The notes under the pieces were generated by a model. It made no database searches, was not told the DNA's origin, and worked only from the letters and a program-made list of their open reading frames with translations. A program made the position numbers and the translations under genes. From Leptonemataceae bacterium (GTDB lineage Bacteria > Spirochaetota > Leptospiria > Leptospirales > Leptonemataceae), in the NCBI GenBank assembly GCA_965227295.1, contig OZ245742.1, positions 2,944,001 through 3,008,000 of the forward strand: a stretch of 64,000 nt of DNA, given 5' to 3'. This document shows, in pieces, positions 2,228 to 61,335 of this stretch; the stretch's first letter is position 1, and each line of letters opens with the position of its first letter.

Positions 2228-2540
2228 TTCGCAGCCGCCCCGAACAGTGGGGTAAGTGGCGGCCAATGTGGGCTGAGCCTTTTATGGTTACGACTGGTTC
2301 CAGGCGACAACGGTTGTAGGGCGGGGGAGCGCGGTTGTGGGGCGCACCGGAACAGCGTCTTCGTCGTGAAAATCGCAGCTGCCGGGATCAACACAGTTGC
2401 CGATCCGCGTCCGGGTCGATGCGGACGTTCTTTGCAAAACGACTCACCACAACTCCGAAGAGCCGTAGCAAAAAAATCCCCTTCTCAATCCCGCAACTTA
2501 CCCTGCGAGTCTCACGGCCAACGCCGTGAAGTACAGCGCC
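2228..2540 (+). repeat. ~330-bp repeat family, array 1 (single degenerate unit)
   Basis: Shares blocks CGCCCCGAA, GTAAGTGGCGGCC, CTGGTTCCAG, GTCCGGGTCGA, CACAACTCCGAAGAGCCGTAGC, CGCAACTTAC with the other arrays. Confidence 0.85.
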
Positions 2541-2594
2541 ACGAATCAGGACATTAGTTGACTGATGTCGTTTGTCGTTTTACTCATGTCGCAG

Positions 2595-3665
2595 ATGGCC
2601 GGGAAGATCACGCACATTGAGGGCCTGCGGCAGACGTTGCACTTAATGGAGCACGGCAAGGGTGTGGAGCGAGATTTCGCGGAGCGCCTGGGCGAGCGCC
2701 GGCTCTTTCGGTTCGCCTGCCTGGGGGCCGTGGCGCCGGACGTCTTTTATTTTTATCACATCTTCGAACGCAAGAAGAACGCCCTGGGCCTCGCGTGGGG
2801 GAATCGCGCGCACCATTCCCGGGTCTTCGAGTTCGTTGCGCATCTGCTGGACTTTGTGCGGGACGCGGAAGACGAAAACGTCCGCGACAAGTGCCTGGCC
2901 TTCACCGTGGGTTATCTCTGTCATTGCGGCGTGGACATCGTCACGCATCCGTACATCTTTTACATCACCGGCGATCCGTTCAGTGAAGATCGCGAGGAAG
3001 CCTGGGAGGCGCAGAGCCATCACCTGCGCGTGGAGTTCGCCCTGGATTCGTATCTCATGCACCATCGCTGGGGCATGGGGCCGCAGCGTTACGACTTCCT
3101 GCACTACGTCGAGGGCACGCACGATGCCGACGACGACGACCAATTGGACGGCGACATTCGCCGCATGTGGGTGCGCGCGCTGCGGGAAACGTTCCTCGAA
3201 GACTTCGACGAGGAATATCCAGGCGAACCGGACATCGTACGTCCCGGCGATCTGATCAACGATGCTTACCGCGGCTTTCTGCGTTTTTGTTCCTGGACCG
3301 ACGCCCGTTCCTGGATCATTCGAATGATATTGCATCTCATCGACCTGCTCACATTTCGTAAACTTCGCGTGCGCTGGTTGATTCTGCCGCAGCCGCGGCG
3401 CGTAAGCCCGCGCCTGCACAACGAACGCCGGACGGAATGGAAGTACCCCGCGGACCCGGAGCGGCGGTCCACCGAGAGTTTCATGGACCTGGTCCACCGG
3501 GCCGCGGAGTTTTCGGCGGAGCTCGTCGGCGACGGCCTGGCGGTGGCCGCCGGGGAATTGAAGCGCAAGGACTTCCTGAAAAAGTACTCCGGCTACAATC
3601 TCGACACGGGTCTGCGTTCGGATTCTCTGGAGATGCAGGCCTTCGAACCGGTGCGCGATGTTTGA
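2595..3665 (+). CDS. Zinc-dependent phospholipase C family protein
   Basis: MAGKITH start, GAVAPDVFYF, GYLCHCGVDIVTHPYI and HLRVE motifs; start could be 2565. Confidence 0.75.
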   Translation: MAGKITHIEGLRQTLHLMEHGKGVERDFAERLGERRLFRFACLGAVAPDVFYFYHIFERKKNALGLAWGNRAHHSRVFEFVAHLLDFVRDAEDENVRDKCLAFTVGYLCHCGVDIVTHPYIFYITGDPFSEDREEAWEAQSHHLRVEFALDSYLMHHRWGMGPQRYDFLHYVEGTHDADDDDQLDGDIRRMWVRALRETFLEDFDEEYPGEPDIVRPGDLINDAYRGFLRFCSWTDARSWIIRMILHLIDLLTFRKLRVRWLILPQPRRVSPRLHNERRTEWKYPADPERRSTESFMDLVHRAAEFSAELVGDGLAVAAGELKRKDFLKKYSGYNLDTGLRSDSLEMQAFEPVRDV

Positions 3666-3702
3666 ATGGTAATCATTTATTGGTGTAAGTTAAGGAGATA
3701 GT

Positions 3703-4425
3703 ATGATGTTTCGAAAATCTTTGCGCCGCTTCGTTGCCGGCACCGTAGTTTTGGCCCTGGCGGTATTCGTTTTGCACTGCGGGGAAAGCGGCGAGGTTCG
3801 TTACATGCGCAGCGGTCAGATCTTCAAAGACGCGGACCTCAAGAGCGCCGTTATGTGGTTGTCCCAGGGCGAGAAGGTAGTCATCCTTGAGGCCGGAGAC
3901 AAAGCGACGAAGGTCCGCCTCACCGACGGCAAAGAGGGTTTCGTAGAAACGAAACGTCTGCGGGATCTCGTGGGTGTCCTGAAGACCGACGACGTGACGT
4001 TGCGCCTGCGTCCCAGCGCTTCGTCCGGCGAGGCGCCCAGCGGCAAGTTCATGAAAACCGGTACCGTGTTCTTCGTGAAAGAGCAGGAACAGAACGACGA
4101 GGGTTTGTGGTTCAACGTGGACGGGCGCAACGGCAAGTACTTCGCCGGCTGGTTGCAATCGGAAGTTTCTTACACCGACGATCTGGCCACCGTGCGCCAG
4201 GGGTTGGAACTGGAGAAGGCCGTGCGCGAAAAAGACGTGGATAAGATCGATGAGCTGGCCGGCGAAAGCGGGCCCATCGGCATCGCGGCAGCGGCAGCCC
4301 TGGTAGAACTGAACGGTGTGACCGAGGAAGAAGGCGAAGACGGGGCACCGGAAGACGCGCCCATCGAGGACCAGGCCGACGAAGAAGACAGCATAGATGA
4401 ACCGCCTCCGCCTCCGTCCATTTAA
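3703..4425 (+). CDS. Lipoprotein with SH3-like domains and acidic tail
   Basis: Signal peptide ending VLHC; KVRLTDGKEGFV and LRLRPS..GW SH3b-like segments. Confidence 0.6.
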   Translation: MMFRKSLRRFVAGTVVLALAVFVLHCGESGEVRYMRSGQIFKDADLKSAVMWLSQGEKVVILEAGDKATKVRLTDGKEGFVETKRLRDLVGVLKTDDVTLRLRPSASSGEAPSGKFMKTGTVFFVKEQEQNDEGLWFNVDGRNGKYFAGWLQSEVSYTDDLATVRQGLELEKAVREKDVDKIDELAGESGPIGIAAAAALVELNGVTEEEGEDGAPEDAPIEDQADEEDSIDEPPPPPSI

Positions 4426-58942: not shown

Positions 58943-59183
58943 ACAGATAGGCATTGCCGGGCGGGCCGCCTCTGCGCGCGAGCGATTGGAGGGATGGCGG
59001 CCACATACCCTCGGACCGCTTTTTCTCCGCTCCGCGCGCCCAAAAATCAACTCACCGCCCCGCCGAAAACGGCCGACATAATACCCAGGACCGCCCGAAA
59101 AAGGCCCGGACCGCGTCCGCGATGCGCGTATTTTATTTGCACGCGCGCCGCCGGTACGATACAAGCAAATCAGGAATCATACG

Positions 59184-60260
59184 ATGGTAGACGGATCGTT
59201 ATCCCAGGAAGAAATCGACGCGCTCTTGCAAGGAGCGGACGACGGCCCCTCGGCGGGCCCGTCTCAGGAAATGCCGTCGGACCTGGCCACGGGGACATTG
59301 GGCCAGGACATGTCGCCGATCGAACGCGAGACAGTTGCTGATATCGTGCATCAAGCAATGAATGCCGGCACGCAGGGCCTGGGCATGATCCTGTCCCGCA
59401 ACATTCGCCTGGGGCAGCCGTACGCCGAAAGCCGGGACCTGGCCGGAGTCCAGCGCGACGCCGGCGCGTCCATCGCGCTGAGCCAGAATCTCCAGGGCGG
59501 AATCTCCGGGCCCATCGCGCTCTTTATCCCCTCGGCCGACGCGGCGCGGGTGGCGGCCATCGTCATGGGCAACGAGGACACCGTCGACGCCGACGCCGCC
59601 CTCGACAGCGCGCAAACGGCGACCATCAAAGAGAGTCTCGGGCCCATGCTTTTTACCATGGCCTCGCAGATTTCCGCGAAGGTCGGCGTGGCGATTACGC
59701 CCATGCCGGTGAACGTCTACGGCCCGGGCGAAGCGCCGTTGCAGGGCGACAGTTTTCTTAAGATCCAAATCCCCATCACCATCGAAGGCGGCATCGACAC
59801 GCGCATGAACCTGGTCATGCCGTTGAGTATGGGCGTCGAGATCTACAGCAAGACCCGCCAGCAGGCGACCGGTCCCGCGCCGGACATGGGCATGGGCGGC
59901 GCGCCGCAGCAGGCTCAGGTCCCGCAACCGAATCAGCAGAACTTAAAAGACGTCGGTTTTCCGAACCTCACGGCCGGCGGCCCCGGTCCCATGCAGCCGA
60001 ACATGAATCTGCTCATGGACGTGCAGATGACGCTCACCGTAGAGCTCGGTCGCACGAAGATGTACATCAAAGAGATCCTGGGTCTCGGCGAAGGTTCGAT
60101 CATCGAACTCGACAAACTCGCCGGTGAGCCGGTGGACCTGCTCGTCAACGGCAAGCTGATCGCCAAGGGCGAGGTCGTGGTTATCGACGAAAACTTCGGC
60201 GTGCGCGTGACGGATATCGTGTCACCCATCGATCGCTTGAAGTCGACGAAGCAAGAGTAA
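59184..60260 (+). CDS. fliY: Flagellar switch protein FliY/FliN (CheC-like N-domain plus FliN domain)
   Basis: LSQEEIDALL; LMDVQMTLTVELGRT..GSIIELDKLAGEPVD..GEVVVIDENFGVRV. Confidence 0.88.
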   Translation: MVDGSLSQEEIDALLQGADDGPSAGPSQEMPSDLATGTLGQDMSPIERETVADIVHQAMNAGTQGLGMILSRNIRLGQPYAESRDLAGVQRDAGASIALSQNLQGGISGPIALFIPSADAARVAAIVMGNEDTVDADAALDSAQTATIKESLGPMLFTMASQISAKVGVAITPMPVNVYGPGEAPLQGDSFLKIQIPITIEGGIDTRMNLVMPLSMGVEIYSKTRQQATGPAPDMGMGGAPQQAQVPQPNQQNLKDVGFPNLTAGGPGPMQPNMNLLMDVQMTLTVELGRTKMYIKEILGLGEGSIIELDKLAGEPVDLLVNGKLIAKGEVVVIDENFGVRVTDIVSPIDRLKSTKQE

Positions 60261-60356
60261 GCCCCGGACTTACACGTCGTCGCGCCGGGGATGATCCGGT
60301 AAACCGAATCCGCTGCGGCTGCGGAGTAAGTAACGTTCGGTTTGAATTAATCCTTG

Positions 60357-61335
60357 TCGCCCCGAATTGTGAAGTAAGTCGCGGCCAGTGTTTATTAATA
60401 CTTTTTTGGTCACGGCTGGTTCCAGCTGACGAGCGGAGGTCATGTCGGGGATCGTGGTAAGGCGGACCGGCAGAATTCTCGCTTCGGCGAGAGTTCTGAA
60501 CCGCCGGCTTTCCGCATCAGCGGAAAGCATAATTCCTCGGCGTCTTTTTTTCGGAAAAGCCATCAAGCGAAGGCGCACTCCGGAGCCCCGCTCTATCCGC
60601 GGGGCGGAGCGAGTGCGCCTTCGCGCCCGGCGGACCGGAACGGCGTCTTCGTCGTAAGAAACGGCAGGGGGGCTGAGCCGCAAACCAGCGTCCGGGTCGA
60701 GGCGGACTATCGTAGCAAAACGACATACCACAACTCCGAAGAGCCGTAACCAAAAAATTCCCTTCACAATTCCGCGACTAACTTCATGTTTCTCACGGCA
60801 ACGATCACGAACCGCAGCTCTTGAGGTACCGGCAACGCTCAGGTGATTCGCAAATGCCCCGAATCGTGAAGTAAGTTGCGGCCAGTGTACATTAAGCCTT
60901 TTTTGGTCGCGGCTGGTTCCAGCAGACGAGCGGAGGTCATGTCGGGGAGCATGGTAAGGCGGACCGGCAGAATTCTCGCTTCGGCGAGAGTTCTGAACCG
61001 CCGGCTTTCCGCATCAGCGGAAAGCATAATTCCTCGGCGTCTTTGTTTCGGAAAAGCCAGCAAGCGAAGGCGCACTCCGGAGCCCCGCTCTATCCGCGGG
61101 GCGGAGCGAGTGCGCCTTCGCGCCCGGCGGACCGGAACGGCGTCTTCGCCGTAAGAAACGGCAGGGGGGCTGAGCCGCAAACCAGCGTCCGGGTCGAGGC
61201 GGACTATCGTAGCAAAACGACATACCACAACTCCGAAGAGCCGTAACCAAAAAATTCCCTTCACAATTCCGCGACTAACTTCATGTTTCTCACGGCAACG
61301 ATCACGAACCGCAGCTCTTGAGCTACCGGCAACGG
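60357..61335 (+). repeat. ~330-bp repeat family, array 6 (2 units of ~497 bp, each with modules B+A)
   Basis: Near-identical tandem duplication, period 497 (e.g. 60567 vs 61064). Confidence 0.96.

Follow-up and report, generated by a model that had tools for sequence, protein, structure and literature searches.

Among bacterial mosaic repeats, a kind of element known for a long time, two groups come closest to the family that is the subject of this article. One is the system formed in enterobacteria by repetitive extragenic palindromes (REP), bacterial interspersed mosaic elements (BIME) and REP-associated tyrosine transposases (RAYT, or TnpA-REP), described, for what concerns us here, in PMC3333891 and PMC2817692 and, as regards REPINs, in PMC3116915 and PMC8049555. 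The other comprises BOX, RUP and SPRITE of pneumococci, which, in the relevant sections of PMC3049150, are enriched between convergent genes, a preference read there as tolerance of insertions behind genes, and are sparser in sister species and near-absent beyond. The family described here was first seen in a stretch of 64,000 nucleotides from the genome of a Leptonemataceae bacterium (contig OZ245742.1, positions 2,944,001 to 3,008,000; this whole stretch is called the window, and positions refer to it unless the genome is named), where it forms intergenic arrays of a unit of some 330 nt. We take it, on balance, to be a family of intergenic repeats, non-coding, built as a mosaic of modules and confined to one genus, that is comparable to REP/BIME and BOX; its niche, its modularity, its population structure and its phylogenetic spread would group it with lineage-specific mosaic repeats.

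The likeness to REP/BIME lies in hundreds of copies, extragenic and at gene ends, clustered in tandem as a mosaic of a few modules with linkers and making up about 1% of the genome, and also in long persistence, vertical inheritance and hairpins kept by compensatory change. A REP, however, is a palindrome of 20-40 nt, whereas the unit here reaches ~330 nt and is for the most part non-palindromic, its optional modules alone being palindromes; REP orientation alternates, whereas our units stand head to tail on one strand; and this genome, unlike those of the RAYT system, has no Y1/RAYT gene. With BOX and SPRITE, as presented in the cited sections of PMC3049150, the family shares composites of modules, a variable internal copy number, enrichment in convergent gaps and a distribution that is dense in one species, thin in close relatives and nil further out, as well as rare new insertions, an uncertain mobilizing enzyme and terminator-like relatives, which are here solitary hairpins sharing the first 25 nt of the unit. 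BOX differs by its boxA and boxC ends, which resemble terminal inverted repeats (TIRs), and by its tight fold, while here there are no TIRs and no global fold; moreover, what is repeated in our arrays is the unit in full and not a single inner module, and the units are three to six times longer.

Extent, niche and anatomy of the family

The host genome is closed and measures 5.94 Mb. The original prediction, drawn from the letters of the window, had proposed that copies be counted over the whole genome: one repeat unit as query found 113 loci, and iterated BLAST 130 loci covering 78,630 bases. This amounts to 1.3% of the genome and to about 11% of whatever DNA our own gene calls leave uncovered. 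This recurrence is far above chance expectation. Because short-read contigs (two runs of one study) cross the junctions of the assembly, starting in unique flanking sequence and reaching 30-60 nt into the arrays, and because word depth in array bins rises up to ~50 times the single-copy level, we do not take the family for an assembly artefact. That the arrays result from a wrong collapse or expansion of repeats is extremely unlikely, the more so as the 130 loci hold diverged copies and relatives exist in two other genomes; what speaks for it is that the contigs cover the array junctions only, and neither array length nor unit number.

Gene positions come from our own scoring of open reading frames (ORFs), which is crude but agrees with Pfam in the window, and which gives 4,784 genes and 88% coding DNA. 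By this measure 58 of 122 arrays lie in convergent gaps, although these account for only 403 of the 2,922 gaps overall (14%; odds ratio 5.7, p 4e-18), and six lie in divergent gaps (odds ratio 0.15). Orientation relative to genes, for which a genome-wide look had likewise been proposed, turns out to be free: co-directional gaps hold 27 sense and 31 antisense arrays, the arrays standing at gene 3′ ends in either orientation. Between a gene's stop codon and the array end that faces it there are 4.5-13 nt in the median, and some 90-130 nt remain between array and downstream start codon. The unit reads forward along the leading strand in 74 of 122 arrays (p 0.02), against 54% of genes. BOX, RUP and SPRITE occupy such a niche in pneumococci, according to the sections of PMC3049150 cited above.

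Splitting at one anchor motif resolves the arrays into units of about 330 nt and into longer units with inserted hairpins: 53 of 124 anchor-to-anchor units measure 328-331 nt, and the others cluster near 370, 390, 434 and 497 nt. Sixty basic units taken genome-wide show a median identity of 79% (range 58-97%). Along the unit coordinate, or phase, Half-1 extends from ~318 to ~140 and carries a small hairpin and an optional, covarying 60-nt hairpin, H, while Half-2 extends from ~140 to ~295 and contains an 85-nt core with four conserved sequence blocks; the linker between them occupies phases 296-317. Each half is also found solo, Half-1 in 10 arrays and Half-2 in eight. Five optional hairpin modules (H, I1, I1b, I2 and I3) are inserted, each at fixed points of the unit; 44 of the 46 genome copies of H lie within arrays, as does every copy of I1, I1b, I2 and I3 (16, 20, 13 and 15, respectively). 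H is a genuine selected hairpin: over 23 copies 97.9% of the cells are paired and six pairs are changed on both sides, a level of pairing reached by none of 500 shuffles, and slid controls attain 59% at most. The earlier description of units as mosaics of alternative blocks is borne out as well, the strongest linkage between columns falling within short blocks (phases 176-184, 96-104 and 69-76), which supports the view that alternative blocks are reshuffled among copies.

Several other ways of seeing the unit were discarded. A long palindrome or TIR element was rejected, the self-inverted alignment score of the unit (27) equalling that of shuffles (26.7 ± 6.1), and so was a coding unit, lengths of 328-331 nt not being held to multiples of three and no frame being kept, with few stops. 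Twenty folds of Half-1 and of the unit junction, taken over both strands, gave nothing better than dinucleotide shuffles do; the junction folds repeatedly pair GCAACTTAC with GTAAGT, yet z only ranges from -2.0 to +0.8. A long-range helix seen in an alifold of 60 units was absent with 100 profile-aligned units (-11.8 kcal/mol, either strand), and because it had vanished the 60-unit structure was not used. Minus-strand matches that resemble terminators rest on G:T-rich stems, and these stems are not kept in the congeners. Outside the arrays, nine solo hairpins of ~60 nt (for example at genome positions 1605224, 1514440, 1975736 and 1419492/1419667) carry the first 12-25 nt of the unit at their start; they finish with a T run followed by GGGCG, are terminator-like, and could be related to the repeat family, left over from it or used by it as targets.

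Ends, spread and age of the arrays

Array ends were mapped with unit profiles in three circular rotations. From the window alone, the arrays had appeared circularly permuted and without fixed termini. Over the genome this is wrong, since ends cluster at module boundaries. Phases 301-330 hold the starts of 42 of 129 arrays, against some 12 expected, and most of these starts fall just before ACGCCCCGAATC; further classes start at phases 261-290 (24 arrays), 131-150 (19) and 111-120 (10), and ends concentrate at phases 131-160 and 287-301. Over 33 bins both distributions are far from uniform (chi-square 210, starts; 105, ends). Many arrays ending at phases 131-160 continue into the H hairpin and, because H is not part of the profile, a peak seen at phases 171-180 is a false one. 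Within the window itself two pieces share near-identical ends (phases 318 to 295 and 319 to 296). Arrays made of a whole number of units are weakly enriched, at 23 of 93 against 15.8 ± 3.3 in shuffles (p 0.02).

Neither target-site duplications (TSDs) nor TIRs were found, as the original prediction had it. For 122 arrays the longest word shared by the two flanks averages 4.33 nt, against 4.50 in mismatched pairs, and a shared word of at least 7 nt is met in 3.3% of arrays versus 4.0% of mismatched pairs; likewise, when the last 45 nt are reverse-complemented and the first 45 compared with them, the score averages 6.0, versus 5.8 in controls. Ends gathered at one phase with TIRs or TSDs would have meant ordinary miniature inverted-repeat transposable elements (MITEs), whereas the genome has several end classes with none of these marks. 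It is because the arrays have no TSDs or TIRs that their spread is unlikely to have been of the cut-and-paste type, in agreement with what had been proposed.

The way units resemble one another is telling. Among 88 units in arrays with at least two full units, half (44) are closest to another unit of their own array, with an identity that is typically 92-97%, well above the genome-wide median; this supports the recombination or duplication between copies that had been anticipated. The other 44 have their closest relative in a different array, at 77-91% in the 60 rows examined, and among these 60 of 88 units no cross-array best match exceeds ~94%. Such a gap between neighbours and cross-array relatives suggests that local duplication is recent, whereas dispersal to new loci would be old or slow. 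Variants present in three copies or fewer occur at ~1% per site and are nearly even (mean 1.7 per column, variance 2.5), also inside blocks conserved at more than 95%, while common variants avoid those blocks. This is what would be expected if only copies with intact blocks were propagated or converted; it is equally compatible with a host function and with a cis-requirement for spreading, and does not tell the two apart.

Where the enzyme responsible might be encoded was looked for in the closed genome. Searches for a Y1 HUH transposase (RAYT, PF01797) gave no match, while the control search was positive in six of 14 reference genomes, and no TnpB gene was found. The prediction had placed the driver elsewhere than beside the arrays, and indeed the 43 genes lying between neighbouring arrays contain no recurrent family. 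Its further suggestion, a copy linked to an HUH/RAYT, reverse transcriptase or recombinase gene, fared less well: there is no HUH/RAYT gene, none of ten reverse transcriptase genes lies within 5 kb of an array, and the XerC/D-like recombinase gene that starts 38 nt from a partial unit (genome positions 5671707-5672744) looks to be in an ordinary co-directional gap. A single IS110-type gene is present, with no repeat beside it; no autonomous insertion sequence (IS) with the ends of the unit was seen at this gene or between arrays, other transposase families not having been searched. The four tyrosine recombinase genes include two that are XerC/D-like and one that is the integrase of the island described below. 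As to the ten reverse transcriptase genes, several occur in identical copies (frames of 624 aa twice, 472 aa twice and 456 aa four times), and active retroelements, group II introns for example, are their probable carriers.

Searched at the DNA level, 40 relatives returned just weak 70-nt matches, in two genomes of the same genus, and it is these matches that define the 85-nt core of Half-2. By a model built on the sequence of this core alone, copies number at least 108 in this genome and 15 and 24 in its two congeners; 38 genomes from 24 other genera gave no copy. An exact-pattern scan of the genomes of 185,579 species yielded six stretches, in two records of metagenome-assembled genomes that are probably the two congeners, and the unit was without match in plasmid and phage collections. 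Within the genomes searched, the core thus appears restricted to this genus. In the congeners the cores are solitary and intergenic, five of the eight loci examined following immediately on the stop codon of a same-strand gene; among the three species, whose orthologous proteins are ~70-75% identical, the family is large and arrayed solely in this genome.

Comparison of orthologous loci, which had been put forward as a means to find empty sites, gave a mixed answer. Between fliN and fliO the family is represented in each of the three species (E 1.5e-9 and 9e-9), in both congeners by an inverted pair of repeat cores (L021, 2661-2920; L022, 2672-2858). Behind the PrsW-like and SSF genes of the congeners nothing similar was seen by eye. 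In the hisG gap of both congeners a remnant was suspected from its by-eye likeness to the start of the unit, but the profile search found nothing significant there. Two syntenic gaps with a core in a congener have no array here. The orthologous gaps being mixed, the family therefore predates the three species and was later gained or lost locus by locus.

The arrays of the window

Repeat finding, splitting at the anchor motif and profile search all confirmed, at the places first indicated, seven array pieces, whose intervals as first given sum to ~6.3 kb, about a tenth of the window (Table 1). Tandem Repeats Finder detects just the two youngest, 44254-45216 (period 329, 94% matches) and 60359-61334 (period 497, 97%). 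The abutment of arrays on stop codons also stands, the flanking genes being those of HisG, a PrsW-like protein, an SSF symporter, a melibiase and a transporter of the major facilitator superfamily (MFS). As was noticed at the outset, no transposase gene adjoins the window arrays; the second array has, however, a XerC/D-like recombinase gene at a distance of 1.1 kb, and the split array contains an integrase gene. ORFs of 100-170 aa cross the arrays on both strands (16691-17101, 40647-41165, 60270-60767, 60839-61357 and others). The last array is located inside a flagellar gene cluster (59184-62434).

Table 1. Repeat arrays, supporting contigs and associated genes, in window coordinates; the fourth column gives the limits returned by the unit profile.
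Feature	Position	Strand	Profile limits	Remarks
Single unit, phase 318 to 295	2223..2538	+	2223-2538	Between hisG stop and next gene
Array of ~3 units, phase 319 to 296	16595..17807	+	16595-17807	Begins on stop codon of PrsW-like gene
H hairpins in two units of the preceding array	16748-16811, ~17551-17614	+
XerC/D-like recombinase	18888-19793			Phage_integrase (177 bits) and N-terminal SAM-like domain; 1.1 kb from the 16595-17807 array
Array of ~2 units	24425..25204	-	24425-25204	Abuts SSF symporter stop; inverted partner of the other arrays by repeat finding
Junction-crossing short-read contig	38533-40810
Array of ~5 units	40751..42658	+	40751-42589	Fills convergent gap between melibiase and MFS transporter; beyond the profile, continues through a hairpin module to ~42658 (terminal H hairpin, 42595-42658)
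Junction-crossing short-read contig	42619-44283
Array, 2.9 units (329 nt each, 94% alike)	44254..45216	+	44224-45221	Interrupted by the island at CACAACTCCCG (45206-45216)
Junction-crossing short-read contig	45187-57949			Spans the island
Integrative island, 12.7 kb	45217..57919	+		Not part of the repeat
Tyrosine integrase of the island	45399-46298
1843-aa island protein with PT-HINT pretoxin domain	49199-54730
Continuation of the split array	57920..58077	+	57920-58077	Opens with second CACAACTCCCG copy (57920-57930)
Array of two 497-nt units, 97% alike	60358..61335	+	60358-61335	Each unit with I1 and H hairpins; between FliN-like and FliO-like genes

The two pieces first listed at 44254-45216 and 57925-58069 had been counted as one array, and rightly so, as they are parted by a 12.7-kb insertion. 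This integrative island is bounded by the 11-nt direct repeat CACAACTCCCG and, besides the products listed in Table 1, encodes a helix-turn-helix protein and small unassigned ORFs; its G+C falls to 0.49-0.52 at 53-55 kb. It is inserted between CACAAC and TCCCG, within the conserved core of a repeat unit, and the sequence thus formed, CACAA-CTCCCG-TTGTG, resembles the core site of a dyad. The I2 hairpin in this genome and different small hairpins in both congeners are all inserted at the same point of the core. Apart from the repeat family, the window carries two adjacent paralogous ORFs of ~2,000 aa (26339-32266 and 32279-38371), with direct repeats ~5.93 kb apart that are 70-84% identical.

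Readings of the family and their consequences

The first idea about this repeat was that its units are non-coding cassettes moving as circles or concatemers, by site-specific integration or by rolling-circle copying. It would readily account for arrays standing head to tail on one strand without TSD or TIR, for a commonest left end just before a 12-nt motif, ACGCCCCGAATC, and for the slight excess of arrays with a whole number of units, although most arrays do not hold a whole number and there are several end classes instead of one. The same motif opens the nine terminator-like solo hairpins and recurs, by eye, just past the right end of three single-unit copies, where it may be the start of a truncated next unit. 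An island with a tyrosine integrase has entered the conserved core exactly at the point where small hairpins are inserted in all three species, and the genome has four tyrosine recombinase genes; two of these, however, look like housekeeping XerC/D. Since no cross-locus pair exceeds the ~94% mentioned above, apparently nothing is moving now, and searches found neither an HUH/Rep gene nor a ribozyme. We therefore hold this explanation to be unlikely, though the best of the alternatives, rolling-circle copying as such being a conceivable route. A more precise form of it, which we see as decidedly doubtful, would make the units gene-less cassettes of a dispersed integron- or Xer-like system, in which a circle would integrate at the ~12-nt site ACGCCCCGAATC and the core itself would be a recombination site. 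As ACGCCCCGAATC also starts hairpins behind genes, arrays would accumulate head to tail at gene ends without TSDs, and recombination would be carried out by one of the four enzymes of the tyrosine recombinase class, or else by some unrecognised enzyme that this species has kept and that the congeners, with their few solitary copies, have lost or no longer use. Integron cassette arrays and Xer-dependent elements do consist of head-to-tail units with a short common site, without TSDs, under a tyrosine recombinase encoded elsewhere. Yet they differ from the present family, which has 130 dispersed loci and not one platform, and units that are non-coding; the likeness is limited to mechanism, and rests on neither an attC-like or dif-like site nor a link to a recombinase.

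Structured RNA provides another explanation, according to which the arrays would be tandem small RNA-like genes or elements of 3′ untranslated regions, the blocks being RNA motifs and the hairpins variable stems. Several features speak for it: H covaries; the B hairpin has 143 G:T cells against 80 A:C cells; I1 is closed by a cUUCGg tetraloop; variable hairpins sit at fixed points, one of them shared by three species; the core is conserved although orthologous proteins have diverged as far as stated above; and one array, inside the flagellar gene cluster, is probably co-transcribed. We nevertheless judge it improbable. No Rfam 15 family matches the window at gathering score, nor convincingly the arrays at E<=10, the five weak matches over 40600-45400 (sX15, CRISPR-DR28, mir-1824, istR and mir-598) being far below cut-offs; a hammerhead suspected from the stretch CTGACGAG was rejected, with no hammerhead or other ribozyme in Rfam at E<=10. 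Over 20 sequences of the core, from three species, no consensus structure emerges (-1.8 kcal/mol, with not one compensatory pair), Half-1 and the junction fold like shuffles, and the top mutual-information pairs reflect block linkage, not base pairs. Orientation with respect to the upstream gene is random, and there is no conserved promoter at a fixed phase (three promoter-like sites, 1.7 expected). Ordinary MITEs, non-autonomous derivatives of DDE or IS200/605-type IS inserting side by side, are very unlikely and largely refuted. Like MITEs and palindrome-associated transposable elements (PATEs), the family is short, non-coding, present in many copies at gene ends and reliant on functions encoded elsewhere, and at least seven single-unit copies of ~293-325 nt have nearly the same ends (phase 311-321 to 276-306). 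PATEs, which derive from IS200/IS605, themselves lack TIRs and TSDs. The family differs from all of these, however, in combining array ends without TSD or TIR, a unit whose inverted similarity is that of shuffles, a genome with no Y1 or TnpB gene and with a single IS110-type gene away from any repeat, and a weak replication-strand bias of just 74 to 48.

The family fails the defining tests for REP/BIME-RAYT, for MITEs and for IS200/605 derivatives, and we come back to mosaic repeats of the REP/BIME and BOX kind as the account that we prefer. Under this account arrays would lengthen and shorten by local tandem duplication or by unequal recombination between units, and modules would be reshuffled through recombination or gene conversion between loci, as identity patterns suggest. 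Dispersal to new loci, old or slow, would follow a route that leaves behind neither TSDs nor TIRs, and the conserved blocks, by their pattern, would fit cis-sequences required for propagation or binding. As for the host, the effect would most likely be on transcript ends, through termination or stabilization by GC-rich hairpins, which is a guess. Some observations weigh against such a view. The driver searches of the genome found no enzyme or mechanism of dispersal; the defining features of REP/BIME fail (Y1/RAYT, alternating orientation, palindromic unit); blocks outside hairpins are conserved in three species and hairpins occur at the same core point, which could mean a host function or an RNA; finally, the figures on the niche derive from gene calls made by crude ORF scoring.

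What we have here is a large newly found family of a long-known kind, and it has practical as well as biological consequences. Its arrays break short-read assemblies, and the ORFs that cross them, by-products of the repeat, would be mis-called as genes. About a ninth of the non-coding DNA of this genome is one repeat family, the spread of which we could not place in any known transposase class. The contrast between three species of one genus, from at least 108 copies in one to 24 and 15 in the others, can serve as a natural experiment in the search for the enzyme, if any, that maintains such families. The arrays are, moreover, positioned to set the transcript ends of well over a hundred genes, including some inside the flagellar gene cluster.

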